Source of the DNA: an uncultured Verrucomicrobiae bacterium | GTDB taxonomy: Bacteria; Verrucomicrobiota; Verrucomicrobiia; Chthoniobacterales; UBA10450 | Reading direction: 5' to 3' | Length of the DNA stretch: 64,000 bases | NCBI GenBank assembly: GCA_963782205.1 | Contig: CAWAIY010000007.1 | Coordinates: 43,690 to 107,689, forward strand | In this document: positions 655 through 23,942 of the stretch, piece by piece | How positions within the stretch are numbered: position 1 is the first letter of the stretch | Layout of the letters: each line of letters opens with the position of its first letter | Notes under the pieces: generated by a model | The model's database searches: none | Seen by the model: only the letters and a program-made list of their open reading frames with translations | Told to the model about the DNA's origin: nothing | Made by a program: the position numbers and the translations under genes

Positions 655-2025
655 CTACTGCGCTGCCGGTGAAGGCGAGCCCGGTGGCGGTTGCGGCGGC
701 GGGCCAGTTTGCAAAGGCGAGATCTCGGTTCCTTTGCGTGTCGCGACGATGAGGGTCGATTGCCGGCCACTCCAGCGATAGCCGATGCCAAACCCGAGCG
801 GTGCCGGATTGCTTTGCTGGTAAAGGCCAAGCAACTGCGGCTGGGCGTATTTCTTGAAGATTTCGATCGGGCCCGCGTAGGCGCCGAAGAAACGCAACGA
901 CCATTTGGCCTGGTCGAAGGCGCTAATCGGGATGCCGGAATCGTCCTGAATGATGGCCTTGCTATGGTCGAGGAGAAAATCGCGCACCGCGCTAAACCCG
1001 TTCTCGAACATCAAATACGAGGCCGATTTAAGCAGGCTCGCGCCAGTGCCCTGTGCCGCGCAGAACTTTAAGAAGCCGGGCTGGCTGCGAATACCTTCGT
1101 TGGAGAGATCGGTCGTAAAATAATAAAGCGTCTGCGTCGGTGCGTCGGGGGCGCCGGTAAAGGTGATGCGAACTCCAGGGGTGAGCCCTTTGCTTTTCTC
1201 GTTAGGTGAGGTCTGGTGCGGCTGGCCGCTTTTGTCGAGGGTGACGAAGCTGACGTCGGTGATGGTCTTCCCGGCGCGCGCGAGAAAAACATAGAAAATC
1301 GGGAGCGTGCCCTTGAGTTGCTCCTTTTCCAGATCGGTTTTCATCTCCCTGGTGATGAAAAACGAGAAGCTCAAGACGCTGTTGAGCGATTTCTGAAGAC
1401 TCTCGAGAACGGAATCGAGCGCCGGACCGCCGAAACGCGTCGCGTCCGGCAACGGACCGATTGGTTCGGTGCCGGCGAGAATGTATGTGCCCGCGTTCGG
1501 GAAAAACTGATTCGCGTAGAGAAAATCCGGGCCGCTAAACATGTAAAAGATAGTCGGGAGCGGCTGGGTCGCGTCCGGCAGGTAGTTCACCTCCCACTCG
1601 CGGATGCCGGTGAATTGGCGCGCGGCAAGCTTGGCCCAAGCCTGATCGAAAAAGGTGGCGTGCTCCTGCCAGATTTTCGTCTGCTCGAGCGGAACGAGTG
1701 ATGAGCTTTCCGAGACTGCCATCCCAGCGAGGAAACGGGCCGTGTCGTTGACCGAAGCGGGCCCGACGGCCACCGGCGGCATCACTTCGCCTGGGGCGGT
1801 GGGAGCGCCGGGCGCGATTTCGGTCGCGGGCGTTTGGGCGACTGACGGATTGCCTGGAGATGCCTCGGGATTCGGCGCGGCCGGCGAAACGCCAACGGCC
1901 GGTGTCTCGGCGACCGGTGGATTTATCGGGATGGCGCGACGCACTTCCTGCGCCTCGACTGCGAGGCCGACCAGGCAACTGCAGAAAAGCACAAGCCTCA
2001 CCATTCGTGTTGGAGAAGATTTCAC
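655..2025 (-). CDS. hypothetical secreted protein with N-terminal signal peptide and Pro/Ala-rich linker
   Basis: 456-aa ORF. The N-terminus MKSSPTRMVRLVLFCSCLVGLAVEAQ looks like a signal peptide, and the coding-like composition holds throughout. I recognise no family with certainty. Confidence 0.6.
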   Translation of the reverse strand: MKSSPTRMVRLVLFCSCLVGLAVEAQEVRRAIPINPPVAETPAVGVSPAAPNPEASPGNPSVAQTPATEIAPGAPTAPGEVMPPVAVGPASVNDTARFLAGMAVSESSSLVPLEQTKIWQEHATFFDQAWAKLAARQFTGIREWEVNYLPDATQPLPTIFYMFSGPDFLYANQFFPNAGTYILAGTEPIGPLPDATRFGGPALDSVLESLQKSLNSVLSFSFFITREMKTDLEKEQLKGTLPIFYVFLARAGKTITDVSFVTLDKSGQPHQTSPNEKSKGLTPGVRITFTGAPDAPTQTLYYFTTDLSNEGIRSQPGFLKFCAAQGTGASLLKSASYLMFENGFSAVRDFLLDHSKAIIQDDSGIPISAFDQAKWSLRFFGAYAGPIEIFKKYAQPQLLGLYQQSNPAPLGFGIGYRWSGRQSTLIVATRKGTEISPLQTGPPPQPPPGSPSPAAQ

Positions 2026-2055
2026 GGTTTGAGATTGGGCTAGGGGCGGCCGCGC

Positions 2056-2838
2056 CTAACCAGACATTCCCGCGACGGCATTCGGTGCCGCTTCGCGTGC
2101 CACCCGGCGGCGCAAGTTCACGACTTCTGCGAACATGCGCAAACTGTCGCGCACAATATGCACTTTGCTTCCCTCGCGATGATCCCAGCGCACCGGCAGC
2201 TCCACCATGCGCAGGCCGGCACGCTGCGCGAGAAAAAGCAATTCCACGTCAAATCCGAAACCATCGATTTGTGCGCGCTCGAGGATGGGACGGGCAGCTT
2301 CCATCCGGAAAGCTTTGAAACCACACTGGGTGTCGGAGAAAGGAAGGCCGGTCGTCAGGCGAACGAGCGCGTTAAAGACCTTGCCTCCCTGCTCGCGTCG
2401 CCAGGGCTGGCGATGGCCGATAAGGCTGCGATCGAGGGCACGCGAGCCGAGAACAATGTCGTAATCGCCCGCCTCGATCGGCTCGACGATCTTCGGCATT
2501 TCCGTGATCGGTGTCGACAGGTCGGCGTCGGAAAAGAGCGCGATCGGCGCCTGCGCGGCGAGCAGACCGGTGCGAACCGCGTGGCCTTTACCGCGGTTTT
2601 TGGTGGCGCGCAAAACGCGCGCCGTGACATCAGGCAGCCGCGCGAAAAGTCCCTCTGCCACTTCCGCTGTGCCATCGGTAGAACCGTCATCCACCACGAT
2701 CAATTCCGCTTCCGGACGGAAGGCCTGCAGATAACTCAGGAGGGTGAGCAGGTTGTCGGTCAGACGCCGGGCTTCGTTGAAGGCCGGAACGATAACAGCG
2801 AGGGCGGGCTGGTTCATGCCTGACGAATACCTATCCAA
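2056..2838 (-). CDS. family 2 glycosyltransferase (dolichyl/polyprenyl-phosphate glycosyltransferase-like)
   Basis: The protein contains LAVIVPAFNEARRL...VVDDGSTDGT...DADL, typical of GT2. An alternative start at 2817 (MNQPAL) is possible. Confidence 0.85.
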   Translation of the reverse strand: MDRYSSGMNQPALAVIVPAFNEARRLTDNLLTLLSYLQAFRPEAELIVVDDGSTDGTAEVAEGLFARLPDVTARVLRATKNRGKGHAVRTGLLAAQAPIALFSDADLSTPITEMPKIVEPIEAGDYDIVLGSRALDRSLIGHRQPWRREQGGKVFNALVRLTTGLPFSDTQCGFKAFRMEAARPILERAQIDGFGFDVELLFLAQRAGLRMVELPVRWDHREGSKVHIVRDSLRMFAEVVNLRRRVAREAAPNAVAGMSG

Positions 2839-3997
2839 TCGCGCCGAAGGCCAGTCCGAGCCCGTAGGTCACGATCGCCTCGATCACGCCCACTATCGTC
2901 ATTTCCAAACCCGAGGCCCACCAGGAGCGAATGGTGATGAGCGATTTGATCGCGCCAACCGCGAAGTGCGCCACGATGCTGATGACAAAAGCCGCGATGA
3001 CCGCCGGGAACCCGCTCATGAAAAAGAACGGAACGATCGGAATGAATGCGCCGACCGCGGTGGAGAGCGCGGCGGAAAAGGCCGAAGTCCATTGGTTGGG
3101 AAAATTATGCTGGGAAAGACCCAGCTCGCTTTGTGCCATCGCCTGCACCATCTGCTCGGGCTGCTGCGCCAGCCGCTCCGCCATGCGTTGCGATTCCTCC
3201 GGGGCAAATCCCTGCAACTGATAAAAGAGCGCCATCTCCTCGATTTCCTCCTCGGGATTTTCATCGACCTCGGCTTTCTCGCGCGCAATCTCGGCCTCGT
3301 AGATTTCGCGCTCGCTCTTGTTTGCGAGGTAGGCGCCGGCGCCCATCGAAAGTGACGAGGCAAGCATGCCGGCAAGTCCCGCGATGAGAATGTAATGCTG
3401 CTGGTTGTCGGTTGCGCCGGCCACGCCGGAAACGATCCCGAAGACCGCGCCGAGCCCGTCGTTCACGCCGTAGATCGCGTCCGCCACCCAACCGCCGCCG
3501 CGACCATGCCAGCGTTCGCGTTTCAGAATGGTGTCGAGCACGCTTTTTGGGCCTAACGACGAGGGCGTTGCGCTCATCGTGTTCAAAATTCGCGAGTGCG
3601 CCTTTTCCTCGAGCGCGGTCTGGCGAAGAAATTCCTGCTCTTCATCGTTGCCAGCCAGCTCGCTCTGGCTTTGTGCCTGGTAACGCTCCTTGTCGCGATC
3701 TTCCGCGGCTTCCATCCGGCGGATCGCCACCTCCGCGCCGGCTGCGCGCGTCCACCAGCGATTAAGGCGCCGGCGCCAATCATTCCTCAAGACCGGCGGC
3801 GCGGCCCCGAGCTCATGCAACTTGTTTTCCCAGCGGACCGCGTGGCGTTCCTCCGCTTCCGCCATTCGAAGCAAAATGCCGCGGCGCTTTTCATCCAGCT
3901 CATTCGCGGCCAGGGCGCGGTAAACCAGCGCGGTTTCGCGTTCCGCGCGCCAATTGGCCTGGAGCGCTTCGACCGCTTTGACGTTATCCGGCTTCAT
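2831..3997 (-). CDS. VIT1/CCC1-family iron/manganese transporter with N-terminal ferritin-like (rubrerythrin-like) domain
   Basis: N-terminal ERETALVYRALA...AEAEERHAVRW resembles the ferritin-like fold. The C-terminal part is a multi-TM region with GVNDGLGAVFGIVSGV, typical of VIT1. Confidence 0.85.
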   Translation of the reverse strand: MKPDNVKAVEALQANWRAERETALVYRALAANELDEKRRGILLRMAEAEERHAVRWENKLHELGAAPPVLRNDWRRRLNRWWTRAAGAEVAIRRMEAAEDRDKERYQAQSQSELAGNDEEQEFLRQTALEEKAHSRILNTMSATPSSLGPKSVLDTILKRERWHGRGGGWVADAIYGVNDGLGAVFGIVSGVAGATDNQQHYILIAGLAGMLASSLSMGAGAYLANKSEREIYEAEIAREKAEVDENPEEEIEEMALFYQLQGFAPEESQRMAERLAQQPEQMVQAMAQSELGLSQHNFPNQWTSAFSAALSTAVGAFIPIVPFFFMSGFPAVIAAFVISIVAHFAVGAIKSLITIRSWWASGLEMTIVGVIEAIVTYGLGLAFGAIG

Positions 3998-4021
3998 CTC
4001 GCTGTGCTCTTTTAGCGGGTT

Positions 4022-5008
4022 TCATCTCACTTGCGCAACCGCTGTCGCAGGGGTGGCGACGTTTTTTCGTTTCATCTGCCCGGCGGTGATAACAAGGGCG
4101 ACCGATCCAATAATGATGACCGCAGCCACGGCGGTGCGACCCGTCAATGCTTCACCGGCAAAAAGAGCCCCGAGCAGGACAGCCACGACCGGGTTGACGT
4201 AGGCGTAGGTTGCGACCTTCGCCGGATCGCAGTGGCGCAGCAACCAAATGTAGGCGGTGTAACCGACGACCGCGCCGATGAGGACGAGGTAGACAAACGC
4301 CCCTAACGATAAGGCGGTTATCTTTTCCAGATGAAGATCGCGCGCTTCGCCGCTCATTAGACCGGCGATGATCATCAAGGCGCCACCGCAAAGCATGGTT
4401 TGCGCGGAGGAGAGAAAAGGCGGTGCCGAGGTGCGGGCGTGGCGCGAATAGAGCGAACCGATCGACCAACCTAACGAGCCGAGGAGCAGAACCAGCATCC
4501 CGAGGCCAACGTGCTTTCCGCTTCCGCCCAGAGAACCGGCCAGGGCCGGACCAACCAAAATTCCCACTCCGACAAATCCACCGGCAAGTCCAAGCATGAC
4601 AAGCGGTCCTGGCCTTGGAGCGGAGCCGCTCAGCGAGGCGAGGAGCGCAATGTAGATCGGCACCGTTGCGACAAGGAGAGAAGCGAGGCCTGAGGCGACC
4701 CATTGCTCGGCGATCGTCACGCTACCGTTCCCGAGGAGGAGAAGACAGCCACCGACCACAAAAGCCGTGCGCCACTCGGCGAGGGAAGATTTCGTCGAGC
4801 CCTGCCAGCGCGCGATTCCGTACATGATGACTCCAGCGCAGGTGAAACGCGCGCCCGCCATGAGCAGGGGCGGGATCGATTGAATCGCCAACAGAATCCC
4901 GAGATAGGTGGACCCCCAGATGAGGTAAAGAGCGGCGAAAGCCGCGATGATCGCGAGTTTGCGCGGGGCGTGGGCCGGCTCGCTCACGAAAAGCGATCTT
5001 CCGTCCAC
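4022..5008 (-). CDS. EamA/DMT-family transporter
   Basis: Ten-TM-like hydrophobic profile with a duplicated EamA-like architecture (IWGSTYL...). Confidence 0.85.
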   Translation of the reverse strand: MDGRSLFVSEPAHAPRKLAIIAAFAALYLIWGSTYLGILLAIQSIPPLLMAGARFTCAGVIMYGIARWQGSTKSSLAEWRTAFVVGGCLLLLGNGSVTIAEQWVASGLASLLVATVPIYIALLASLSGSAPRPGPLVMLGLAGGFVGVGILVGPALAGSLGGSGKHVGLGMLVLLLGSLGWSIGSLYSRHARTSAPPFLSSAQTMLCGGALMIIAGLMSGEARDLHLEKITALSLGAFVYLVLIGAVVGYTAYIWLLRHCDPAKVATYAYVNPVVAVLLGALFAGEALTGRTAVAAVIIIGSVALVITAGQMKRKNVATPATAVAQVR

Positions 5009-6520: not shown

Positions 6521-7411
6521 ATGGAAAACGAGATCGACGCGTTCATCCGCTATCTCGCGGTGGAGCGCGGTCTTTCGGAAAATTATCAGCTCTCGACCCA
6601 GCGATCGTTAGGCGAATTCGCCATCTGGTGCGCGCAACGAAAACAGATCTCGCGCGCCCGCGAAGTCGGGCTGCCACTGGTCAGCGAATATCTGGCGGAA
6701 CGCAAACGCGGCGGCCTTTCTGCGTCCTCGATCAAGTTGATCGTGGTCGCGCTGAAAATCTTCTTTCGTTTTGCGACCGGGCAGGGATTCGTGGCAAAGG
6801 ATCCGACCGATTCGCTGATGCTGCCGCGGATCGAGCGTTACCTGCCGGAAACGCTGAATGAGTTGCAGGTCGAGCAATTGCTCGAAAGTGTGGACGAGAA
6901 AGCGCCGCTTGGTTTGCGCGATCGCGCCATGCTGGAGCTGCTCTACGCCAGCGGGCTGCGCATTTCCGAGCTGGCCGGCGCGAAGCTGGAAGACCTCAAT
7001 CTCGAAGAAGGCGTGGTGCGCGTGACGGGGAAAGGAAACAAGACGCGGCTCGTACCGGTCGGGCGCAAGGCCTGCGCGGCGCTCGCCGTCTATCTCGAGC
7101 GGGAGCGCCCGCGACTTGTCAGGCGCCGCAGCGGGAGCGAAGTTTTCCTCTCCAACCGCGGCGGTCGCCTGACGACCGTGCGGATCTGGCAGATCGTGAA
7201 AGCTGTGGCGCGGCGTTCGGGCCTGGAGGCGAATGTGTATCCACATTTGCTGCGGCACAGTTTTGCCACCCATTTGTTAGGCAATGGCGCCGACCTGCGC
7301 ATCATCCAGGAAATGCTCGGGCACGCCGACATTTCGACAACGCAGGTATACACGCACGTCGACCAGCAGCGCTTAAAGGCGGTGCATCACAAATTCCACC
7401 CTCGCGCCTGA
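6521..7411 (+). CDS. tyrosine site-specific recombinase, XerC/XerD type
   Basis: N-terminal SAM-like domain (IDAFIRYLAVERGLSENY) and a catalytic region with ...LRHSFATHLL...LGHADISTTQVYTHV. The ORF track extends to 6482, but the ATG at 6521 (MENEID) is the more likely start. Confidence 0.9.
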   Translation: MENEIDAFIRYLAVERGLSENYQLSTQRSLGEFAIWCAQRKQISRAREVGLPLVSEYLAERKRGGLSASSIKLIVVALKIFFRFATGQGFVAKDPTDSLMLPRIERYLPETLNELQVEQLLESVDEKAPLGLRDRAMLELLYASGLRISELAGAKLEDLNLEEGVVRVTGKGNKTRLVPVGRKACAALAVYLERERPRLVRRRSGSEVFLSNRGGRLTTVRIWQIVKAVARRSGLEANVYPHLLRHSFATHLLGNGADLRIIQEMLGHADISTTQVYTHVDQQRLKAVHHKFHPRA

Positions 7412-7419
7412 CGAATCCG

Positions 7420-8634
7420 CTATCTGCAAAAAAGCGCGATGGACGCGGTATAGCCGTGCAGATAGCTGGCACGACCGATCGGACCGATTTCGCCGTTGCA
7501 GAAGAAACCGGCGCTCGGCGCCGGACCGAAAATTTCCGCAAGGGTCGCGGCATCGTGATCCGGCACGCCGAAGAAGCGCTGGCCGCGGCCGTTGCAGGAA
7601 AAGACGAGCGAAGCGAACGGTTCGCAGCCCCGGAGCCCGTTGATTTTTGCCAACTCCATCAGGTCGGCGTGAGCGGTGATCTTGTCCCGCAGTTGGTATT
7701 GCAAGGTTTGCCCGGTTCGGACGCGTGCGCCGATCGCGACCGCGCCGGTTTGCGGATCTGCGCCCAACAGGTTGCGGACCAGAAAATCGCCGCGTTTTAA
7801 ATCGGCGACGTATTCCGATGCGGCCAGACCGGCGAAGAGATTGCCACGGGCGCGTTCTTTTTCCTGGTCGGATAAGCCGTTGAAGGTCTCGCTCAGGACC
7901 TGGTAGGCGGGGCGCGAACCAAGGGTGTAGACGAGGTTTTCCTCCGCCTGCGTAATGGTGAACGGCTCGCCCACCGGCTTGCAACCCTGGCTCACGATGG
8001 TGCGAATCTTTGCGCCCTTGACCGCGAGGGCTACGACAGCAGCATCGACGACTCTGCCATCGAGGAGCAGGCCGTTCTCGCCGCTGCCGTCGATTCCGCT
8101 GACAAGCCCGCCGATGCTGGGCGCTTCGGGAAAAGCCACATTCCATTCCGCCAGCCAGCGCTCGAGTTCCGGAACAAAAGGGTTGCCCAACACAACCCAA
8201 GAATCGACCTCATCCGGACCGAGGCCAGTCTCCATCTGCCAGTAGGCAGGCCCGGTTGATTCTCCAATCTGTTTATTGGAAATCAAAACCGGGGTCAGTT
8301 TTGCCTCCGGGAGGCTAACGAGCAGCAGTGACATCCCAGCCGCGCCTTCCACTTCCCGGCCGACGCCGATGAGGCCGCCACCGACCGATCCGACCAAAAG
8401 CGGGATGCGGGCATGCAGCCTAACGAGATCGAGCACTTCATGAATCTGCGGAAGCCAGCTGGCGGAGAGAAAAAGGAAACCGCAGGTGGGCGGGCCGCCG
8501 CATTCAGCGAGAGCCTGCTCGGCCGCGCCGATGACCGCGCTTTCCCGGAAACTGCCCAGAACGAGCCGGGACCCTGCGCATGATGCCATGCAGGGAGATC
8601 GTCGATGCGGGGCAAAAAGTCGAGTGCGCTCCAC
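7420..8634 (-). CDS. FIST-domain signal transduction protein
   Basis: The length and motifs (FLFLSASW..., ...FFCNGEIGP) match the FIST_N/FIST_C architecture. Confidence 0.8.
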   Translation of the reverse strand: MERTRLFAPHRRSPCMASCAGSRLVLGSFRESAVIGAAEQALAECGGPPTCGFLFLSASWLPQIHEVLDLVRLHARIPLLVGSVGGGLIGVGREVEGAAGMSLLLVSLPEAKLTPVLISNKQIGESTGPAYWQMETGLGPDEVDSWVVLGNPFVPELERWLAEWNVAFPEAPSIGGLVSGIDGSGENGLLLDGRVVDAAVVALAVKGAKIRTIVSQGCKPVGEPFTITQAEENLVYTLGSRPAYQVLSETFNGLSDQEKERARGNLFAGLAASEYVADLKRGDFLVRNLLGADPQTGAVAIGARVRTGQTLQYQLRDKITAHADLMELAKINGLRGCEPFASLVFSCNGRGQRFFGVPDHDAATLAEIFGPAPSAGFFCNGEIGPIGRASYLHGYTASIALFCR

Positions 8635-8671: not shown

Positions 8672-10477
8672 ATGAAGAAATTGCTGGCGGTAGTCGCGAT
8701 GGCACTGGTGGCAGCGGCGGCGGCGTGGATTTTCGTGCGCGTCCAGCTGGCGAATCGCCTCGTGACGGTGCCAGAGTTGCTGCCGAAGGCGACGCTCTTC
8801 CTGGTGCACGTACCGGATGTGAGACGCGCGCGAGAAGGCTGGCAAGCGAGCGATCTTTACCAGATTTGGCGCGAGCCATCGGTCCAGAGTTGGCTGCAGA
8901 AGCCGCTCGGCCGCTTGCCGCAGAATGATAGGGACGGCAAAACGCTGGAGGAGTTTCTCCAGCTCGGCCCGACGCACGCTTTTATTGCTTTGGCGTCGCT
9001 TGAGAATAACGAACCGAAACTGGTCGGCGGGTTCCATTTTGCGGAGACGCCGGAAAAAGCGAAGCAATTTATCGCGCAACGCGAGGCGAAATGGTGGCCC
9101 AAAGCGGGCGACGCGAAGCGCGAAACGATTCTCTACGACCAACACCGGATCGAGACGCTAAACGTCTCGCATTTCGTTTTCGCGCGCGCCTTCGATAACC
9201 ATTGGTTCTTCGCCTCGAACAATCTCGCTGCGCTTAAGGCATTGCTGGATCGTGTCGATCGACGTCGAGAGAAAAAGGAGCCTTCGCTCAAGGATGATGA
9301 GGCGTTTGCCGCCGCGAGAAAGCATCTCGCGGGAGAATATGAGGGATTGCTTTTTGTCGACCCGCGGCCCTTCCTGGAAAGGCTGATGCCGCTCATCTTG
9401 ATGGCAGGCCAATCGCTCCCGGCTGCGCAGCTCGAACGGCTCAGATCAGTGCGCAGGGTGGCGGTAGCGCTCGGATTCGAACATGGCAAAATGCGCGAGA
9501 CCGATTTTGTGGAGATGCCGCGGGTCGGCACGGACAAAAAATTGACGCGTCCGCTCCTTGCCACCGCCGGGGCCGACACCTTTTTCTATTCTGTGTCGCG
9601 GATGTCTTGGCGGGACAATGTTTTCTCACCCACTACACCAGCGGCCAGCGGTCTTTCCGCGCTTATCCGGCAATTCAGCCTGGGGCTCGCCTCGCGCGGG
9701 ATTTCGGCCGACGACCTGGGGCAGGCCTTTGGTGAGCAACTGGAAATGACCGGCGCCTGGCAGGCGGACGCGCATTGGCCAACCTTTCTCGCCGCTCTGC
9801 CCGTGATTGACCCGGCACGCGCGCGGAAAATTGCTGAGGCGGTGACCTCCGTCGAGATCGCCGGCACGCCTTGGACGCGGACAGAGAAAAATGATGCGAC
9901 CATTTACAGCGCTCAACCGTTTGGCGGCGTGGTGCAGTTTAGTGCCACGGTCGCGGTTTCGGACAAGATGATGTTCCTTGGCTCGGACACGGGAGCGGTT
10001 GAAGCTGCGCTGGCGGGGCCGACTGAGCCGACCGGCGAACTAGAAAGAAGCGCCATTTTCCGGGACGCCGCGACGCAGGTTTCGGCCGGAGATTCGGCAT
10101 TTAATTACGTCGATACCCGGTTGTTATTCGAACGGGCAAACGCCGCCATCCGTCCGTTGCTCATCATGGGTGCAGCGGTGTATCCCGCCTTGGGGAAGGA
10201 TGTCGACTTGGCAAAGCTCCCACCGTCGGAGGCGATCGCGAAACATCTCTCGCCCATCGTGATGTCGCAGCGCTACGAGAGTGACGGCTATGTGACCGAA
10301 TCGGTTGGACCGGTGACATTTCGGGAGGCAACGATCGGAATCGCGGCCGTGGTGGGAAGCTCGCTCCTCTACTTCCGGGAAGGGTTGAGGAACCGCGGAC
10401 TTCTCCAGGCGGTGCCGGCCATCGCTTCCCCGACGCCAACGATGCCGTCCCCAAGTCCAACACCCAGCCCCTTTTGA
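8672..10477 (+). CDS. hypothetical exported protein (DUF3352-like)
   Basis: 601-aa ORF with the N-terminal anchor MKKLLAVVAMALVAAAAAW. The family assignment is from memory only. Confidence 0.6.
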   Translation: MKKLLAVVAMALVAAAAAWIFVRVQLANRLVTVPELLPKATLFLVHVPDVRRAREGWQASDLYQIWREPSVQSWLQKPLGRLPQNDRDGKTLEEFLQLGPTHAFIALASLENNEPKLVGGFHFAETPEKAKQFIAQREAKWWPKAGDAKRETILYDQHRIETLNVSHFVFARAFDNHWFFASNNLAALKALLDRVDRRREKKEPSLKDDEAFAAARKHLAGEYEGLLFVDPRPFLERLMPLILMAGQSLPAAQLERLRSVRRVAVALGFEHGKMRETDFVEMPRVGTDKKLTRPLLATAGADTFFYSVSRMSWRDNVFSPTTPAASGLSALIRQFSLGLASRGISADDLGQAFGEQLEMTGAWQADAHWPTFLAALPVIDPARARKIAEAVTSVEIAGTPWTRTEKNDATIYSAQPFGGVVQFSATVAVSDKMMFLGSDTGAVEAALAGPTEPTGELERSAIFRDAATQVSAGDSAFNYVDTRLLFERANAAIRPLLIMGAAVYPALGKDVDLAKLPPSEAIAKHLSPIVMSQRYESDGYVTESVGPVTFREATIGIAAVVGSSLLYFREGLRNRGLLQAVPAIASPTPTMPSPSPTPSPF

Positions 10478-10540
10478 GGGGAATTGCTCAATCTGGCGGA
10501 CCGCGTTGCGGAACCGTTCAGAGCGAGCGACATATTTTTC

Positions 10541-10548
10541 GCGGAAGT
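10541..10548. repeat. target-site duplication GCGGAAGT (left copy)
   Basis: This 8-mer is identical to 13683..13690 and directly abuts the left terminal inverted repeat. Confidence 0.8.
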
Positions 10549-10573
10549 CGGGATTATGCACTTCACGAATGTT
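10549..10573. repeat. left terminal inverted repeat CGGGATTATGCACTTCACGAATGTT
   Basis: The reverse complement of 13658..13682 is CGGGATTATGCACTTGACAAATGTT, which differs at two positions. Confidence 0.85.
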
Positions 10574-10612
10574 TGTGATCACTGCAAGATTAGCGTTAAG
10601 CTCTTTCCTCGC

Positions 10613-11206
10613 TTAGCGGTGGGATTTTTTAGAACGTCGCTCTCCCACCGGATTCGTTTGTCCCTTGAACTGATTCGGCGAATCAATAGGGCAGCCTCGC
10701 ACTTCTTCGATGATGAGCTGGCAGATATACATCATTGGGGTTAAAAGAAACTTCGACGGGCCAAAATTGATAATTTCCAATGTAATTGGACCCGACCATC
10801 CGGCGTGAATGGTTGGCGCGGTGAAGTGAATTAAAATGCCGCACCGCGCCAGCGAACTTTTGCCCTCGACGCGTGCGCTGTAACTTTGTGATTTATCTCC
10901 CAGGATCGGAAGGGTAATTCTCTCGTATGTATTCGCTAGAATAAGCTTGTTTGGCTTTAGCGTATATCCTTGGTCATCCTCTAATTTCTTCTTTTTGGAG
11001 TGCTTCGCCCAATATCCGGCAATTCCAGATTCCGTTAGATCAAGGGCTACTGGTGCGCCTTCTAAAACGTTTATTTCTTTTCCGAGGCGAAGATCGACGG
11101 CGCTCGTGTTGAACGGTGCCTGAGTTGGATCGGTGCCCGCTAAACCGTCAATCGTCAACGCCCCACGATTGATTGCGTTGATGATCTCCCTATTGCTTAA
11201 AATCAC
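10613..11206 (-). CDS. Dcd-like dCTP deaminase (dUTPase-fold) with basic C-terminal tail; transposon cargo
   Basis: GTG start. MILSNREIINAINRG...GKSSLARCGILIHFTAPTIHAGWSGPITLEIINFG closely resembles the Dcd core (E. coli GKSSLARLGL...DPGWSG). GC is low relative to the host. Confidence 0.85.
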   Translation of the reverse strand: MILSNREIINAINRGALTIDGLAGTDPTQAPFNTSAVDLRLGKEINVLEGAPVALDLTESGIAGYWAKHSKKKKLEDDQGYTLKPNKLILANTYERITLPILGDKSQSYSARVEGKSSLARCGILIHFTAPTIHAGWSGPITLEIINFGPSKFLLTPMMYICQLIIEEVRGCPIDSPNQFKGQTNPVGERRSKKSHR

Positions 11207-11229
11207 TAGGGTCGAGTCGTAGGCAATCT

Positions 11230-11514
11230 CTATGCGGCTTGCAAGAGTCTTTCGTTGATACTAAGCCACCGCGAGCCGGTTTGGAAGGCTTCGGACGGCA
11301 ATAAGACCGTCTTTTGATGTGGTTTCCCATTCTCTCCAACCAAAATTACCTGAATATGCGGCTTGCCTTTTATCTTTTTTATTAGCGAACGGTCGGCGAA
11401 CAGTGAAACGGATTTGTCGTCGAATTGAATTTCCACAGCAGCCTCGCTGCTAAACATTCCCTCAGCAATAGTGCAGGGAATCCAGACACGACGGGATGTA
11501 TTCATACGAATCAC
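11230..11514 (-). CDS. small hypothetical protein (94 aa) immediately upstream of the Dcd-like gene
   Basis: Same strand as the Dcd-like gene, with a 23-nt gap to its start. I recognise no family. Real coding status is inferred only from the ORF and its operon position. Confidence 0.5.
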   Translation of the reverse strand: MIRMNTSRRVWIPCTIAEGMFSSEAAVEIQFDDKSVSLFADRSLIKKIKGKPHIQVILVGENGKPHQKTVLLPSEAFQTGSRWLSINERLLQAA

Positions 11515-11689
11515 GAAACTCCACCCGTTGCGATAGTGTCAATAACAAAATGTCAAGTTTTTGGCGAGAGCCTACGGTTTTTTGATTCGACGGTCGGTGC
11601 GATTAGGATTCGTGGTTTTTCGCTTCGCCTTCTTCCCGCTTGGCGGCGGAGGAACACGCATCGCGCGACGCATCGCCTCGTCGAACTTG

Positions 11690-12061
11690 CTATTCGATGG
11701 CAGGCGAATCGGCTTTGGGCTTGGCATTGGCGATTTTCGGCACGCGAAATCTTTGGCGTACTAATTTTATGTCGATCTCAGGCTTCAAGTCCTCCGGCAT
11801 TATGTTGCCATTTTTTTTGATCGTATTACGGACTTCGCGACCAACGTTAAAGTGGATTTCTTTTGCGGCTTCTTCATCCGAGTTTTCTCGGCGCAACAAT
11901 CTTTCTTCCGTTTGAGTTGCTCGGAAAAAATGCGCAGCCAACTCCGATCTTCCGGCATGATCGAAGAGGTCAGCCGATGACGGCAGATTTTTTCGAGCCT
12001 TTACGGCATCCAAGCCCATATCATAAAGTCCGCGATATAGCGCGGTTGGTGAGATGCGCAA
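11690..12061 (-). pseudogene. DinD (DNA-damage-inducible protein D) C-terminal fragment
   Basis: GLYDMGLDAVKARKNL...DHAGRSELAAHFFRATQTEERL...HFNVGREVRNTIKKNGNIMPEDL aligns from memory with the C-terminal ~120 aa of E. coli DinD (HMGSTELAANLFRATQTEEKL...HFDVGRKVRQTI). The N-terminal ~150 aa have no room upstream. Confidence 0.7.
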
Positions 12062-12134
12062 TAAATCAAGAAATCACATCTTTACACTTTTTTTGTTGCG
12101 TTTCATATACACTAACACGACTGTCGCTCTCAGG

Positions 12135-12572
12135 ATGAACCTCCGCCGAAAACTAACTCGGGAGATTGAAAAGCAGGAAGTGAAAATTTCTCAGATGCGC
12201 AGCGATTTGGTGGCAGCGGAGGCATATCTGAAGGCACAGCAAGATGTGCTCAAGTTGCTGCCGCGCGAACCGCACCAGAGGGAGGCACATCAATTACGTG
12301 TCAACAGCGACCTTGCCAAAGCGCGAGAAATCATCGCAGAAGAGGGTAAGCCGATTCACGTAAGCGAACTCCTTAAACGACTGGGGAAGGAACTTACGCG
12401 GGATAGCAGGGCATCGCTAAGTGCATCAATCGGAGCATATGTTCGTAGAAATGAAATTTTCACACGCCCTGCGCCGAACACTTTTGGGCTGGTCGTGTTC
12501 AACGGTGCCCAAGAGGCTGATCCGGAACCACCCGAAGGATTTGGAATAGACGAAGAAAAGGCCGAGATGTGA
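12135..12572 (+). CDS. hypothetical coiled-coil protein with C-terminal HARE-HTH-like winged helix
   Basis: KPIHVSELLKRLGKELTRDSRASLSASIGAYVRRNEIFTRPAPNTFGL resembles the HARE-HTH pattern. The start at the ATG 12135 (MNLRRKL) is preferred over the track start at 12054. Confidence 0.55.
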   Translation: MNLRRKLTREIEKQEVKISQMRSDLVAAEAYLKAQQDVLKLLPREPHQREAHQLRVNSDLAKAREIIAEEGKPIHVSELLKRLGKELTRDSRASLSASIGAYVRRNEIFTRPAPNTFGLVVFNGAQEADPEPPEGFGIDEEKAEM

Positions 12573-12580
12573 TCTCGGCC
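12560..12580 (+). terminator. hairpin GGCCGAGAT-gtg-ATCTCGGCC overlapping the stop codon, followed by TTT
   Basis: Perfect 9-bp stem read from the sequence. The T-tract is short. Confidence 0.5.
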
Positions 12581-12591
12581 TTTCAGGACTT

Positions 12592-12666
12592 GCCTACGTA
12601 GTTCAAATGCCGGTTAGAACACCCGCCTTGGGAGCGGGAGAAGTGGGTCCAATCCCCACCGTAGGC
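12592..12666 (+). tRNA. tRNA-Pro(UGG)-like cloverleaf, atypical (possible pseudo or mobile-element tRNA)
   Basis: Folded by hand. The stems are: acceptor GCCTACG/CGTAGGC, D GTTC/GAAC, anticodon CCCGC/GCGGG, T GTGGG/CCCAC, and all pair perfectly. The anticodon loop is CTTGGGA. Three features are atypical: a 12-nt D loop, a T loop of TCCAATC (C where the conserved T55 should be), and no encoded CCA. Confidence 0.55.
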
Positions 12667-13634
12667 TATTTCATTGCATTTTTCAATGGCTTCAACGTTA
12701 GGCGCTTTCCCTCCGCCAATTTCAGGGCGGAAACCGTGCGCTCTCCATCGGTGATTTTCCGATTGTTGTAGCGATGATCGAATTCCGCCAAATAGAGAGG
12801 CAGATGTTTCTTAGACACTTGATGAAACGTGCCAATCACTCCGCGCTTTAGCAGGGAAAATTTACTTTCAACGGTGTTTGTGTGGACAGTGAAATCTCCC
12901 TCGCGGCGAGCATATTCCTTCGCCGAATGCTTGACGGCCTTGTGTTTGAAAATCTTCGGCATCCCGCGATAGGCAAGGAAATCGTCCGTGCAAACCGTTG
13001 AGCCGTCTTGAACGTGTTCCATGATTGCGTTTTTCAGGTTGCGTCCGGTGACGCGATCCAGAACAAGCGAGCGTGCGTTGCCGCCGCGCTCGACCAGCGA
13101 AACGACGCAAGTTTTATTTGATCGTCCCGCTTTGCCGCCGTCGCGCACCTTGCCGCCGACGTAAGTTTCGTCTACTTCGACCGTCCCGCTCAGCATCCCG
13201 GTAAACGCTGGATGCGAGAGCGCGTATCGAATGCGGTGCATCATGAAAAGCGCGCTGCGATAGCTGCCAAGGCCCAGCATTCGCTGGATCTGAAGCGAGC
13301 TGATGCCTTTTTTCGAGGAACAGAGAAGGTACCACGCCACGAGCCATTTTCGGAGCGGGATGTGCGAATCCTCGAAGATCGTCCCGACTGTGACCGTGAA
13401 CTGCTTTTTGCAAATGGCGCACTGGCGCAATCCGGCGCGCACCTTCGCTCTATCGTTAGGCTTGATCTCCCAGAATTTCGTTTCGTCGGCGTTTTTGCAA
13501 TGCGGACAAACGATCCCATTGGGCCAGCGAATTTCCTCTAAGTATTGGCGCGCTTTTTCGTCCGATGCGAAGCGGATATTGATCTCATCGAGCGTCAAAT
13601 CCTCTGGCGTTGGCAGCATGGATTTTCGTTTCAT
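12666..13634 (-). CDS. IS1595-family transposase (N-terminal zinc ribbon + ISXO2-like DDE domain)
   Basis: The protein contains ...ARQYLEEIRWPNGIVCPHCKN...CAICKKQFTVTVGTIFEDSHIPLRKW...VEVDETYVGG...TDDFLAYRG...HTNTVESKFSLLKRG, the characteristic IS1595/ISXO2 pattern. Confidence 0.9.
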   Translation of the reverse strand: MKRKSMLPTPEDLTLDEINIRFASDEKARQYLEEIRWPNGIVCPHCKNADETKFWEIKPNDRAKVRAGLRQCAICKKQFTVTVGTIFEDSHIPLRKWLVAWYLLCSSKKGISSLQIQRMLGLGSYRSALFMMHRIRYALSHPAFTGMLSGTVEVDETYVGGKVRDGGKAGRSNKTCVVSLVERGGNARSLVLDRVTGRNLKNAIMEHVQDGSTVCTDDFLAYRGMPKIFKHKAVKHSAKEYARREGDFTVHTNTVESKFSLLKRGVIGTFHQVSKKHLPLYLAEFDHRYNNRKITDGERTVSALKLAEGKRLTLKPLKNAMK

Positions 13635-13657
13635 GCGACCAGTCTCGTTTATTCTTT

Positions 13658-13682
13658 AACATTTGTCAAGTGCATAATCCCG
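13658..13682. repeat. right terminal inverted repeat AACATTTGTCAAGTGCATAATCCCG
   Basis: Inverted partner of 10549..10573 (23/25 match). It lies 24 nt upstream of the transposase start. Confidence 0.85.
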
Positions 13683-13690
13683 GCGGAAGT
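13683..13690. repeat. target-site duplication GCGGAAGT (right copy)
   Basis: Identical to 10541..10548 and directly abuts the right IR. Confidence 0.8.
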
Positions 13691-13737
13691 GAGAAAACTG
13701 CTGCTATTCGGCCGGAATATGTTATTTTTTTCGCCCT

Positions 13738-14058
13738 ATGGCCATCCTAAAAAAGAACGCCTTCTCACGCCGAGTGCCAGATCTCGTTACGGAAGAACTC
13801 GTTGCGGTTCTTTCCCGACGCACTTCATTCGAGTTTAAGCAACTCTTTGAGATCCTGCATGAAAATCTCCGAGCCCGCAACGCGGCCAGCGGTGGAGAAG
13901 AAATGTTGCGCCTGCGCGCCTATGAGAAGCTGCAAAACTTGGTGGCGCGGGGGATGGTCAAGAAAACCGGCAAGAAATATCGGGGATTACCTTCCGCTCT
14001 GGCCAAGGCGTTGATCCCGCCGAACGGCCACCTCCCGACCGCTGCGGCCTCTCGCTAG
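13738..14058 (+). CDS. hypothetical protein (106 aa)
   Basis: ORF with host-like composition lying outside the transposon. I recognise no family. Confidence 0.45.
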   Translation: MAILKKNAFSRRVPDLVTEELVAVLSRRTSFEFKQLFEILHENLRARNAASGGEEMLRLRAYEKLQNLVARGMVKKTGKKYRGLPSALAKALIPPNGHLPTAAASR

Positions 14059-14106
14059 AGCGTTCGTGGCGCCGGTTCACGCTGCCAGGAAAAACGGCTT
14101 GAGGTA

Positions 14107-14478
14107 ATGATCCGCGAATATATCCCCGTTCTGCTGCAGGCGGCGGTCGCGGTGGGCTTTGCGGCAGGAGCGCTTATCATGAGTGTGTTGCTCGGGAAAG
14201 CCGGGGTGCGCACACGGACGAAGGACTCTGCCTATGAGTGCGGAATGGTGCCTGAGGGTGAAGCGCAGCCACGTTTCAGCGTTAAGTTCTACCTGGTGGC
14301 GATGCTCTTCATTCTCTTCGATCTGGAGATCGTCTTCATGTATCCGTGGGCGGTGGTCTTTCGCGAAGCGGTCGGGCAAAGCCACGTCATTTTTTGGAGC
14401 ATGTTGAGCTTCGTTTCGATTCTGATGGTGGGCTACGTTTACGCGCTGAAAAAAGGCGCGCTTGACTGGAAAAAGTAG
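14107..14478 (+). CDS. nuoA: NADH-quinone oxidoreductase subunit A
   Basis: ...YECGMVPEGEAQPRFSVKFYLVAMLFILFDLEIVFMYPWAVVF is the NuoA/NdhC signature. A GAGGT Shine-Dalgarno sequence precedes the ATG. Confidence 0.9.
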   Translation: MIREYIPVLLQAAVAVGFAAGALIMSVLLGKAGVRTRTKDSAYECGMVPEGEAQPRFSVKFYLVAMLFILFDLEIVFMYPWAVVFREAVGQSHVIFWSMLSFVSILMVGYVYALKKGALDWKK

Positions 14479-14531
14479 CGTCGGAGAAAAAAGGCTCGCC
14501 CGGCGTCCGTAGTGCGGTTTTAGTCGTCGCG

Positions 14532-16463
14532 ATGCTCGCGCTGGGTTACCTCGCCGTTGTCATCGTCCTAGGCGACCGGATTCGCGGGAAATTCTGGCTC
14601 GCACCATCGCCGTTGCACCGGTGGGCGGCGGCATTCCTGGTCGGCATTCTTGTCAGCACATGGCTGACTTATCTTTTCGGCGTCGCGTTTGCTGCCAGCG
14701 CCAAGCCACTCGTCTGGGCAAACCTTTTCTTTTTTATCGTCGCAGGCTTTTGCCTGCTTCTTTTGCGCCGCTTCGACGACCTCGATTCCATCTCGGTCCC
14801 CCCGAAAAAGTTAGATTGGCGAGACGCGCTCTTTGTCGCCGCGTTTCTGGCGGTCTCCTGTTGGCTGATGTTCGGCACGCTGTCGATGGTCGACGGCGAC
14901 GTACTCCTCGCTTCCGTCGTCTGGAACGATTTCGGGCCCAATCTTGCCTTGATGCAAAGCTTCGCGCTCGGGCACAACTTTCCGGCTGAGTATCCCTATT
15001 TCATTCACGAACCGATCCGATACCATTTTCTGTTTTGGTTTCAGGCCGGTAACCTTGAGTTTCTCGGACTCAACCTGGCCGCGGCGCTCAATCTCTTGAG
15101 CGCGCTGTCGATGCTGGCGTTGTTGATCTCCATCCTGACATTGGGCGAAGCGCTCTTTGGATCGCGCGTAATCGGCGGCATTGCTGCGTTGCTCCTTTTT
15201 TTTCACGGCTCGCTCTCTTACGTGCCGTTTCTGCAGTCGCAGCATTCAGTGGGCGGCGCCATCCACGCCATCACCCACCTGAACCGCTGGCTTTCATCCG
15301 GTTACCCGTACAGGGGCGAAGACTGGGGAATCTGGTCGCCGAGCATCCTTTACGTGCAACGGCATTTGCTGGGCGCGGTCGGAATCCTTTGTCTGGTGCT
15401 GACGTTTCTTGTCGAGTTTTACAAACAAAAATCGGCCGGTCGCGAGCGGGCGCCGGAAGAGGAACCGGTCGCGTCCCCGCCCCTGCGGAGTTTCATTTTC
15501 TGCGGAGTGCTCATCGGCCTTCTCGTCTGCTGGAACAGTCCGATCTTCGTTTCTGCGCTGACTTTGATCGGCTGTTTGTTTCTCTTTCTGCCCGGGCGCG
15601 TCCGCCTCGCGGCGCTACTGAGCACCGCGCTCCTCATCGGCCTTCCGCAGGTGTTGTTGCTCGGCTTCGCCCAAACAAGCCATCGTTTTTCGATCCTTCA
15701 TTGGGGTTACACGCTCGAGAATCCGACTTTCGCCAAGGCCGTCACTTATTTCCTTTTCACGTTCGGGCCCAAGCTGGGACTCGCTTTCATGGCGATCATT
15801 TTGCTCCGAACGATGCATCGCGTGTTCTTCCTGGCCATGGCCAGCCTCCTCGTGCTGGCTTTTGGGACCCAGTTGAGCGTGGACATCATGAATAACCAGA
15901 AGTTCCTCTACCTCTGGCTGATTCTGCTGAACCTCTTCGTGGCTTACGCGCTGGCACGGATCTATCGCGTTCAGTTCGTCGGCAAAGTTGCGGCAATTCT
16001 ACTCGGCGCGAGCGTGATCGCCGGCGGCGCGATCGAACTGTTTTGTGTTCACAACGACCACTGGATCGATGTCCCGTTTCGGAACAACGCGCTCTCGCAA
16101 TGGCTCCTGCAAAATACCAAGCCGAGCGATGTGTTTCTGACCGACCGATTCGTTCATCATCCGATCCTGATGAACGGCCGCCGGATATTTTACGGCTGGC
16201 CCTATTTTCCGTGGTCGATGGGTTACGAGACGGCCAAACGCGACACAGCCTACAGGCTAATGTTTAGCGCAACGAACCCCGATCTTTTGCTCGATCTGCT
16301 GAAAAGCAACGGAATCGATTACGTCGGGATCGACAACGGTCTGCGTCAGGGATATCTGGGGGTCGGCGCGCACGAAAACGTCTTCGCGTCGAGTCTCCCG
16401 AGGGTGTTTCAGGACAGGGAAAAGCGCTTCGGTGGCCTGACAATCTACAAAGTTCCGCGTTGA
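14532..16463 (+). CDS. large polytopic membrane protein, possibly GT-C-fold (family 39/83-like) glycosyltransferase
   Basis: 643 aa with more than 10 predicted TM segments and a C-terminal soluble domain. The family call is tentative. Confidence 0.55.
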   Translation: MLALGYLAVVIVLGDRIRGKFWLAPSPLHRWAAAFLVGILVSTWLTYLFGVAFAASAKPLVWANLFFFIVAGFCLLLLRRFDDLDSISVPPKKLDWRDALFVAAFLAVSCWLMFGTLSMVDGDVLLASVVWNDFGPNLALMQSFALGHNFPAEYPYFIHEPIRYHFLFWFQAGNLEFLGLNLAAALNLLSALSMLALLISILTLGEALFGSRVIGGIAALLLFFHGSLSYVPFLQSQHSVGGAIHAITHLNRWLSSGYPYRGEDWGIWSPSILYVQRHLLGAVGILCLVLTFLVEFYKQKSAGRERAPEEEPVASPPLRSFIFCGVLIGLLVCWNSPIFVSALTLIGCLFLFLPGRVRLAALLSTALLIGLPQVLLLGFAQTSHRFSILHWGYTLENPTFAKAVTYFLFTFGPKLGLAFMAIILLRTMHRVFFLAMASLLVLAFGTQLSVDIMNNQKFLYLWLILLNLFVAYALARIYRVQFVGKVAAILLGASVIAGGAIELFCVHNDHWIDVPFRNNALSQWLLQNTKPSDVFLTDRFVHHPILMNGRRIFYGWPYFPWSMGYETAKRDTAYRLMFSATNPDLLLDLLKSNGIDYVGIDNGLRQGYLGVGAHENVFASSLPRVFQDREKRFGGLTIYKVPR

Positions 16464-20638: not shown

Positions 20639-21477
20639 TGAAGATTGTCTCTCACGCGCGCTCCGGTCTGACGCTAATCGAACTAATGGTGACAACCGTG
20701 CTGATCGGCGCGCTCGGCCTAATCATTTTTTCGCTCTTGAATACCGGCACCATACTTGGAGCAAAGAACACTGCTGTGAATACGGCCCATCAGCAGGCCC
20801 GCATCGCGATGCTGAAAATGACCCAGAACTTGCATAGCGCGGTCTCGCCGCTCGCTCTCTACGATCCAGCTACCCCAAATACGCCAGCTCCGGCCGACGG
20901 TTCGGCTCCCGGAATCCTGTTTCAACTTTGGGGAGGAGGTCCTTTTCGGATCGCGGCTGATGCGACCGCGGGCCAGAATGTCGTCAAGATCAGAGTAACG
21001 AGCGCTGAAGCGCCTAAAGTTCACCAACGCTTGATCATTCTGACCCACAACGTTGACTCGGATATCACAGCGGTGAGCGGTGCCACGAACGGGGTGGTCA
21101 CTCTGACGCTGCAAACCCCTTTGCCGGTGGATATCACCGGAACCGCAACCTTTAATATCGCCTGCTTTACCACAGACGTGTGCGCCTACGTCGTGAATAA
21201 TGGGGCCCTCGAATGGCACAGCCTCACGGCCCCGCCGCTGTTCGTTGTTTTGACTACCGGCATCACTCGGGCACAACCGTTCCAGACGCCGAACACCGGG
21301 GGTATAGGAAGCCCGCGCGTGGTCGCAGCCATCGGTCTTTCCACCGCCGACTCTCAAACCAGCAATCGTGGTTTCAAATCCGCCAACATTCTTCTCAACG
21401 GGACCGTTCCGACCAAAGCCAAACTAACAGTAGCTGCCACACCACTTCCACTTCCAATTCCATTCCCAACCCCATAA
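20638..21477 (+). CDS. prepilin-type N-terminal cleavage/methylation domain protein (pseudopilin)
   Basis: The N-terminus contains SGLTLIELMVTTVLIGAL. The start overlaps the upstream stop. Confidence 0.75.
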   Translation: MKIVSHARSGLTLIELMVTTVLIGALGLIIFSLLNTGTILGAKNTAVNTAHQQARIAMLKMTQNLHSAVSPLALYDPATPNTPAPADGSAPGILFQLWGGGPFRIAADATAGQNVVKIRVTSAEAPKVHQRLIILTHNVDSDITAVSGATNGVVTLTLQTPLPVDITGTATFNIACFTTDVCAYVVNNGALEWHSLTAPPLFVVLTTGITRAQPFQTPNTGGIGSPRVVAAIGLSTADSQTSNRGFKSANILLNGTVPTKAKLTVAATPLPLPIPFPTP

Positions 21478-21480
21478 TCC

Positions 21481-23301: not shown

Positions 23302-23855
23302 CTGTCGCCTTCTTAAGCCTGGTTCTTCTTGTCGGCGCACGGGCTGAGTTGAATCTGTCACCCAAACTGGCCGATTTCGTCGGGGAGGGCATGACATTCC
23401 ACCATCTTGTCTTCTCGGACGGGAGCGGTAGCGAGATTACTTATCGGCCGCCGGACGGTTGGCAATATTCCGGGAGTGCAACAAAATTGACGCTTCATCC
23501 TCCGAACAAAGCGGAGGCGGAAGGAACAATCACGAGCGTTTCTCTTTCTCATCTCGGCGCCTTCGATGAGGAGACGATGGGACAGTTGGTGAAACAGGCC
23601 CTGGCCGAAGTTCCCGAAGACAGCACCGACCTGACTCTCGTATCCCAGGAGAAGAATCCAATCAAAATCGGAAGCAAGGAAACCTTCCTTGTAGTTATTT
23701 CTTACATGTTCTATGGCGAACGCTTTGAGCGTTCTTCAATGTTTATGAATCGCGACTCCGAACAAATACATTTTCAATTCGTCAGTCGCGCGGCGGATTT
23801 CAATGACCTCCAGCGCGCCTTTCTCGGCAGCCAGTGCACTTGGAATAATTTGTAA
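23283..23855 (+). CDS. hypothetical secreted protein, last gene of the pseudopilin operon
   Basis: Signal-peptide-like N-terminus MVSRSLTVAFLSLVLLVGARA. The ORF overlaps the upstream gene by 19 nt. Confidence 0.5.
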   Translation: MVSRSLTVAFLSLVLLVGARAELNLSPKLADFVGEGMTFHHLVFSDGSGSEITYRPPDGWQYSGSATKLTLHPPNKAEAEGTITSVSLSHLGAFDEETMGQLVKQALAEVPEDSTDLTLVSQEKNPIKIGSKETFLVVISYMFYGERFERSSMFMNRDSEQIHFQFVSRAADFNDLQRAFLGSQCTWNNL

Positions 23856-23942
23856 CGCTGAACTTCAACCGTACGGCTTGCGGAAACGCCGTTGGTTGGT
23901 TCGTTAGAGCCCGTATTACTGGGAGAATCGGCAGAAGACAAT

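Follow-up and report, generated by a model that had tools for sequence, protein, structure and literature searches.

A mobile two-gene operon pairing a histidine-variant Dcd-fold protein with a conserved small protein: a possible nucleotide-pool module

Introduction

Depletion of the nucleotide pool is an established antiviral strategy that extends from bacteria to humans. To our knowledge, all known bacterial effectors that deaminate deoxycytidine triphosphate (dCTP) are built on the zinc cytidine-deaminase fold. Here we describe a two-gene operon that encodes a dCTP deaminase-like protein of a different fold, that of Dcd and the dUTPase superfamily, together with a small protein of an unnamed family. 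The operon occupies positions 10613 to 11514 of a 64,000-nucleotide stretch of contig CAWAIY010000007.1, from an uncultured Verrucomicrobiae bacterium, where it is cargo of an IS1595-family transposon. The whole stretch is hereafter the window, and coordinates refer to it unless another contig is named.

The closest described systems differ from the window pair in informative ways. The defensive dCTP deaminase of Tal et al. (bioRxiv 10.1101/2021.04.26.441389) is a protein of 576 amino acids with an N-terminal kinase and a zinc-dependent cytidine-deaminase domain; it deaminates dCTP and depletes the pool during infection, an activity that for the window pair is only proposed. By comparison, the window enzyme has the dUTPase-superfamily fold, a length of 197 amino acids, a separate small partner and no PADLOC match. 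A first-pass annotation of the window, made from the sequence alone, was thus right to set the published defensive enzyme apart. The AvcID system (PMC10511110) comprises AvcD, a zinc-dependent deoxycytidylate deaminase, and AvcI, an RNA antitoxin. It resembles the window pair in having two components, a deoxycytidine-nucleotide deaminase (there a toxin) and a small upstream element (there an antitoxin), and is anti-phage; it differs from the pair, whose enzyme is Dcd-fold and whose partner is a conserved protein. Type II/IV toxin–antitoxin (TA) modules of which ShosTA (PMC11961720) is an example are likewise bicistronic and patchy or mobile in their distribution, and their toxins act on nucleotide metabolism; however, there is no homology to either component, and the window partner is without a recognisable antitoxin DNA-binding fold.

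The window enzyme is like E. coli Dcd (PDB 1XS1) in fold and family, as recognised by hidden Markov models (HMMs), in four active-site residues and in length (~190–197 amino acids). It departs from the housekeeping enzyme in the replacement of Asp128 by His and Arg110 by Lys, in a shorter lid, in its obligate small upstream partner, in being mobile and dispensable, and in having no linkage to thymidylate synthase. The carrier resembles other IS1595 transposons with passenger genes in its zinc-ribbon DDE_Tnp_IS1595 transposase, inverted repeats and 8-bp duplication; the cargo is its own and consists of the small gene and the Dcd-like gene, a truncated PDC-S13 gene, a gene for a HARE-HTH-like protein and a tRNA-like element. 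Full-text literature searches turned up no account of a defence or TA module built on the Dcd fold.

Results

A Dcd-fold clade with histidine at motif III

The Dcd-like gene (positions 10613 to 11206, minus strand) encodes 197 amino acids that match the Pfam DCD model (PF22769; E = 4.5e-30; 105.2 bits, with the cut-off at 27) and score above the cut-off of the NCBIfam equivalog TIGR02274 (108.3 against 92.8 bits). The Pfam dUTPase model also matches (1.3e-06); these two are the only Pfam domains in the protein. Pairwise HMMER alignment to E. coli Dcd (1XS1 and the entries for its E138 and H121 mutants) shows that the equivalents of Ser111, Arg115, His121 and Glu138 are kept. The same four residues are conserved across 120 clade members, and these close homologues share the near-invariant core EGKSSLARCGIL(V/I)HFTAPTIHAG(F/W)SG. 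Judged from its sequence, the enzyme is a member of a separate clade in which the active-site residues checked, those of dCTP deaminases, are retained.

Four features separate the clade from canonical Dcds. The motif-III Asp (Asp128 of E. coli, in IDPGW/F) is His in the window protein (TAPTIHAG, within the clade motif HFTAPTIHAG) and in 68 of 69 homologues linked to a partner gene; all canonical Dcds compared have Asp. The signature of the clade is accordingly TAPT(I/V)H, as against the canonical TA(G/H)xIDPG. Lys stands in place of Arg110, an insertion of four to five residues comes before GKSS, and the lid at the C terminus is five to six residues shorter than the canonical one (...Y-x-G-K-Y-x-x-Q-x-G-P-T-x-S-R): the terminal T-x-S-R is missing, a remnant, NQFKGQxxPxG, is present, and the clade consensus ends in ...GQTNPAGVV. 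The aromatic residue that stacks on the sugar (HAG-F/W) is retained. A second subclade, ~35–40% identical, likewise has TAPTIHAG. Within the window, neither tblastn nor the clade HMM detects a second dcd or dut.

The near-invariance of the Asp-to-His change, together with the Lys at position 110, the insertion before GKSS and the short lid, invites the thought that the substrate is another one: modified dCTPs (5-methyl- or 5-hydroxymethyl-dCTP) or CTP, with sabotage of phage DNA modification or sanitising of the pool as the function. We consider this quite improbable. The reading is purely inferential, the clade keeps both the sugar-stacking aromatic and those deaminase residues that were checked, and no modification genes lie beside the pair in the loci examined.

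A conserved small partner

A spacer of 23 nt, read from the sequence (positions 11207 to 11229, minus strand), separates the Dcd-like gene from the small gene (11230 to 11514, minus strand). The latter encodes 94 amino acids from a GTG codon that lies four nt past a Shine–Dalgarno-like site, GGTGGAG, or 91 from the next ATG; the 91-residue form is the one held in the protein database (P0001). Searches of Pfam, NCBIfam, PADLOC and PHROGs gave no match to the small open reading frame (ORF), and tblastn against plasmid and phage databases gave none either. A word-indexed search recovered 32 homologues of 45–100% identity, on contigs whose lengths coincide with those of the Dcd hits. Searched with a profile, 1.84 billion cluster representatives gave 288 clusters (at 50% identity) with E ≤ 0.001. 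Almost all of these proteins stand alone and have 72–120 amino acids; among ten longer family members inspected for domain fusions, none had an informative Pfam domain. Conserved motifs are GMFSSE, SLFAD, T-x-LLPSE and ETGSRW. On this conservation we regard the small ORF as a real gene.

An AlphaFold2 model built on the family alignment (predicted local distance difference test score 89.8) is all-beta, with eight strands. The best Foldseek matches are to OB-like or SH3-like barrels, at E ~0.1 (best in the PDB, 0.089) and with TM-scores of at most 0.4. An OB-like or SH3-like assignment was considered and dropped, the matches being too weak, and we claim no fold.

Much of the first-pass annotation of this operon holds. 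The coordinates of both ORFs and their 23-nt spacing agree with the sequence, PF22769 and TIGR02274 bear out the Dcd assignment, the core that it quoted, GKSSLARCGILIH...HAGWSGPITLEIINFG, is present, and the small ORF does belong to no recognised family. The Lys/Arg-rich tail to which it drew attention (GERRSKKSHR) is a different matter: the window protein has it, but it occurs in only four of 69 clade members and is incidental rather than a feature of the family.

The two genes travel together

An alignment of the clade was matched against JGI metagenomes, where it found at least 583 loci, and the best 80 were taken for partner analysis. These were picked by the peptide patterns HFTAPTIH and ARVEG[KR]SS[LF]A; the motif is therefore present by construction, the partner is not. 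Among the 65 loci of these 80 with at least 300 bp of upstream DNA available, an HMM found a small-family ORF upstream of the Dcd-like gene in 62. One further, divergent small ORF (L089) was spotted by eye, bringing to 63 of 65 the loci with a partner on the same strand and directly upstream. Conservation of the small ORF and its co-occurrence with the Dcd clade, the check that the first-pass annotation had proposed, are thus established by the 288 clusters and these 63 loci. The two loci without a detected partner are L067 and L082. L067 carries two His-variant Dcd genes (4121–4684 and 6981–7544 of its contig), 2.3 kb apart, with no small-family ORF detected upstream of either. Of 69 unique pairs, 25 overlap by 4 nt, more than have any other spacing, which points to coupled translation of the two genes.

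The association is equally plain from the other side. At loci reached via the small protein, drawn from JGI, ENA, Logan and NCBI assemblies, a Dcd-like gene lies directly downstream on the same strand in all but two: L014 has no Dcd gene, and at L015 the Dcd gene is adjacent and inverted. In L015 (9962–10932 of CAVWTH010000002.1, a metagenome-assembled genome (MAG) of Verrucomicrobiae) the two genes converge, with a 4-nt overlap of their 3' ends; the inversion could be real or an artefact of long-read assembly. Carriers among MAGs include Verrucomicrobiae, Chthoniobacterales, Blastocatellia, Thermoanaerobaculia and Limnohabitans. The pair was also met from the enzyme side in Pseudomonas chlororaphis (with an 88-residue partner), L011, a Steroidobacteraceae MAG, a contig on which it stands beside atpC, and others. 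The exact P. chlororaphis protein was read on only five contigs, and a scan of genome collections with strict patterns yielded six loci. Pairing persists in the second subclade, in which the Dcd-like gene is preceded by that of a distantly related small protein (…VELPRET-x-x-G-x-WRVWV); its carriers are megaplasmids of Sinorhizobium and Mesorhizobium and two IMG/VR contigs.

The layout is that of a type II TA module: two small co-directional genes, close or overlapping, with a patchy and mobile distribution. A sigma-70 promoter scan upstream of the operon found nothing, and Rfam gave no small RNA beside the pair. We conclude that the two genes constitute a self-contained operon that moves horizontally.

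Pseudogenisation might betray a toxin gene, and the frameshifts of L006 and L008 were weighed on that ground but rejected as evidence. Relative to L007, positions 2983–3637 of L008 show 44 mismatches and 15 gaps, clustered in conserved Dcd motifs (NTSAVD, EGKSSLAR...HFTAPTIHAG and NQFKGQ). We discount the apparent decay because the differences sit in these motifs while the remainder of the contig is 99.7–100% identical to L007; they are likely to stem from long-read polishing in which reads of other Dcd genes were cross-mapped.

The pair is cargo of a transposon that sister strains lack

In the window the pair lies inside an element bounded by perfect direct repeats of the 8-mer GCGGAAGT (positions 10540 to 10547 and 13683 to 13690). 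A repeat finder reported a long imperfect inverted repeat, which inspection narrowed to terminal repeats of 25 bp: the left one, CGGGATTATGCACTTCACGAATGTT (10548 to 10572, plus strand), matches the reverse complement of the right one (13658 to 13682, minus strand) at 23 of 25 positions. The transposase gene (12666 to 13634, minus strand; 322 amino acids) matches DDE_Tnp_IS1595 (4.8e-36), Zn_ribbon_IS1595 (1.9e-13) and NF033547 (197.7 bits). An 8-bp target duplication is typical of IS1595 elements.

Four sister-strain contigs, L033 (871 kb), L034, L036 and L037, have the site empty. In them the sequences of window positions 10000–10548 and 13683–14600 abut, with a single GCGGAAGT between; the flanks are ~96–98.6% identical to the window, and similarity ends at 10548 and resumes at 13683. 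These junctions place the element at exactly 10548 to 13682, a length of 3135 bp. All the marks of an IS1595 insertion are present (DDE transposase, terminal inverted repeats, 8-bp duplication, empty site), and the insertion is recent. Just to the right of the element is the gene for NuoA, whose protein sequence is identical on other contigs. L007, a contig of 3697 bp from another sample, consists of the same element and ~30 nt of the same flanks, as would be expected if a polymorphic insertion had been assembled as a de Bruijn unitig, in which contigs break at branch points of the graph.

The empty sites dispose of the reading that the Dcd-like gene is simply the organism's housekeeping dcd. 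That idea draws on the TIGR02274 equivalog threshold, which the protein passes and by which annotation pipelines come to name it dCTP deaminase. Against it stand the absence of the gene at the same site in the four sister strains, its location inside a transposon with a target-site duplication, and its guanine-plus-cytosine (GC) content, 0.48 compared with 0.59 for the window; we regard it as refuted for this locus. The first-pass annotation had described the pair as low-GC cargo of a mobile element outside any housekeeping context. All three points stand: the element has a GC content of 0.503 and the remaining window one of 0.587, the inverted repeats, 8-bp duplication and empty sites prove it to be mobile-element cargo, and the sister strains show an empty site rather than syntenic orthologues of an only dcd. 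Considered together with its other carriers, the pair belongs to the dispensable, accessory DNA, with transposons, integrative elements and megaplasmids as its vehicles.

In another sister strain, L035, positions 964–4526 of the contig hold a related IS1595 transposon (83% identity), inserted at the same 8-bp target in the opposite orientation. Its cargo slot carries, in place of the pair, genes for membrane proteins of 113 and 178 amino acids that match the PADLOC models 2TM-TIR (5e-12) and 1TM-TIR (3.9e-08). An element with other cargo at the same target suggests target-site preference and an exchangeable cargo slot.

Genomic contexts of the pair

In most cases the pair stands alone as a two-gene insertion amid housekeeping genes unrelated to it, a pattern typical of TA modules. 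Several loci have company of another kind. On L098 (50–9759) the order on one strand is a DUF1156 methyltransferase gene (2.4e-214), the small gene, the Dcd-like gene, and genes for a PLD-helicase (1.2e-231), SIR2 (5.2e-146) and HerA (4.8e-134); the pair may be a working member of this island or a mere insertion in it. On L021 a gene for a TIR-domain protein of 434 amino acids begins 12 nt past the Dcd stop codon, and on L111 and L112 a protein of 303 amino acids with a TIR-effector match (1.2e-08) is encoded ~320 nt downstream. On L011 the element that harbours the pair also encodes a tyrosine integrase and a PrimPol/D5 primase, and the intact form of the window transposon, in L007, also carries PDC-S13.

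These contexts bear on the possibility that the pair is a plain TA addiction module, stabilising the elements that carry it and having no dedicated anti-phage role. Two overlapping genes with the small one first, single insertions scattered among unrelated contexts, and residence on mobile elements are all what such a module would show. Many chromosomal copies, however, have no visible mobile element nearby, and some lie within or beside defence genes. The separation from defence is in any case partly semantic, as many TA systems do both. As an account of the pair in its own right we think addiction alone unlikely.

Phages, canonical Dcds and an orphan partner gene

Phages do carry Dcds, and the window protein matches PHROG 1663 (dCTP deaminase; 1.4e-27), which might suggest a phage-derived nucleotide-metabolism gene stranded in a chromosome. 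The first-pass annotation held this to be as plausible as a defensive role, a view that the distribution of the clade contradicts. A search of 50,697 phage records turned up no member of the His-variant clade; the best match among them is 34% identical, canonical in type and next to thymidylate synthase. Against plasmid and phage databases together, identity does not exceed 39%. In IMG/VR, 38 of 40 Dcds are of the canonical Asp type and partnerless, the small protein has neither a phage nor a PHROG match, and the carrier is an IS1595 transposon, not a prophage. A phage origin of this kind is very improbable.

Canonical Dcds with TA(G/H)xIDPG and without a partner were seen in E. coli, Azospirillum, the Streptomyces plasmid pSAM1, Euzebya, Methanobacterium virus PhiF1 and haloarchaeal viruses; several adjoin thymidylate synthase. 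In the loci examined, the pair is never beside thymidylate synthase or other deoxynucleotide genes.

One phage-like contig has the partner gene alone. The 45-kb contig L014 (IMG/VR UViG_3300017766_003504) carries an orphan small-protein gene (9805–10152; 60% identity) and no Dcd gene. The orphan stands right after the primase gene in a phage replication module that comprises a primase/helicase, ParB, an exonuclease, a gp2.5-like single-stranded-DNA-binding protein and a DNA polymerase. It may be an anti-defence mimic of an antitoxin.

These observations also bear on a metabolic reading, in which the pair is a two-subunit accessory enzyme that supplements the synthesis of dUTP and dTTP (the deoxyuridine and thymidine triphosphates) in hosts or elements that profit from it, the small protein being a structural or activating subunit that, for example, replaces the lid. 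The enzyme passes the equivalog cut-off with every active-site residue checked in place, the shorter lid makes a partner acting in trans conceivable, the tight translational coupling suggests a stoichiometric complex, and the neighbourhoods are mostly metabolic. Yet the empty site shows that the pair is dispensable within a species, and it travels on transposons and integrative elements. P. chlororaphis, one of its carriers, presumably has a housekeeping dcd. The lack of thymidylate synthase or other deoxynucleotide genes nearby sets the pair apart from canonical plasmid and phage Dcds, and the phage orphan is hard to account for. We judge this reading unlikely, though it is the likeliest of the alternatives.

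Other cargo of the transposon and neighbouring features

Outside the conserved pair, the transposon bears separate cargo. A remnant of a Bro-N/DinD-like gene (PADLOC PDC-S13; positions 11690 to 12061, minus strand; 123 amino acids) matches the C-terminal part only of the PDC-S13 and DinD models. L007 has the gene intact, with 279 amino acids (PDC-S13, 1.1e-91; PHROG 8036); the window copy has lost 495 bp, including the start and the Bro-N domain, with the junction at 12030–12037. A putative DNA-binding protein of 172 amino acids (12054 to 12572, plus strand) matches Pfam HARE-HTH weakly (3.9e-05, just under the gathering score) and is kept in L007 and in the sister transposon of L035. Between its gene and the 3' end of the transposase gene lies a tRNA-like element (12592 to 12667, plus strand) with anticodon loop CUUGGGA (UGG, Pro), T-loop UCCAAUC and a long D-loop, which scores 57.4 bits over the full Rfam tRNA model. 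Its status as a tRNA is uncertain because ARAGORN does not call it in the window, in L007 or in L035.

Two further features lie outside the element. Between the insertion site and nuoA is an ORF of 106 amino acids with no family assigned (13738 to 14058, plus strand); every sister-strain contig keeps it in this position, which assigns it to the host rather than the element. Positions 21000 to 24000 form a second stretch of lower GC content (~0.52) with ORFs of 279, 606 and 190 amino acids; the sister strain L033 has ORFs of matching sizes (279, 608 and 190 amino acids) without Pfam hits.

Discussion

We tentatively favor the view, at somewhat short of an even chance, that the pair is a TA-like or abortive-infection-like and probably anti-phage module that acts on the nucleotide pool by depleting dCTP. 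In the uninfected cell the small protein would bind the deaminase oligomer and either restrain its activity or serve as a sensor. Phage infection would remove or trigger this partner, and the released enzyme would convert dCTP to dUTP, so that phage DNA synthesis would run short of dCTP amid a surplus of uracil nucleotides. A dependence on the partner, in place of regulation by dTTP, could have its source in the Asp-to-His change together with the shortened lid, and the phage orphan on L014 would be an antitoxin mimic.

A number of observations weigh against a defensive, dCTP-depleting role. Neither protein is matched by the HMMs of PADLOC-DB v2. A PADLOC scan of 223 neighbouring proteins at 32 loci from metagenomes and genomes gave strong hits at L098 only and a weak TIR hit at L111, the others being generic (IscS-like, ThiF-like); at ~26 of the 32 loci, as a raw count, neighbours are ordinary metabolic genes with no strong defence hit. 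Some 45 contexts were seen overall, several of them annotated with Pfam, and most are ordinary. The links to defence, from L098, L021, L111, the sister transposon of L035 and L014, therefore come from a minority of contexts and are circumstantial. Further scans of viral sequences with single small-protein queries gave no orphan besides that on L014. For the small protein, Foldseek comparison of the model with the PDB and BFVD returned nothing below E = 0.001, and Pfam, NCBIfam and the fold search recognised no DNA-binding domain of the kinds found in antitoxins (ribbon-helix-helix, helix-turn-helix, AbrB). As to the enzyme, the motif-III position changed to His is one that we take to be a sugar-contacting and catalytically important site of the dUTPase superfamily; because His replaces this residue, the substrate is possibly other than dCTP.

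A broader claim, about which we are a little more doubtful, is that the pair represents a widespread and so far undescribed immune or TA system, with a Dcd-fold effector marked by the Asp-to-His change, an obligate beta-barrel controller of a new family, a countermeasure in the form of the phage orphan, and a second, independent origin of immunity by dCTP deamination.

Annotation pipelines label these genes 'dCTP deaminase', as though they were housekeeping genes. The TAPTIHAG signature together with the upstream partner offers a simple rule by which the clade can be told from housekeeping Dcd, and the module, at ~0.9 kb, is small. Should the broader claim prove true, the pair would be a case of convergent evolution, in which immunity by nucleotide depletion arose on the Dcd fold with a dedicated protein regulator, and a new fold would be added to those of small regulators or antitoxins.

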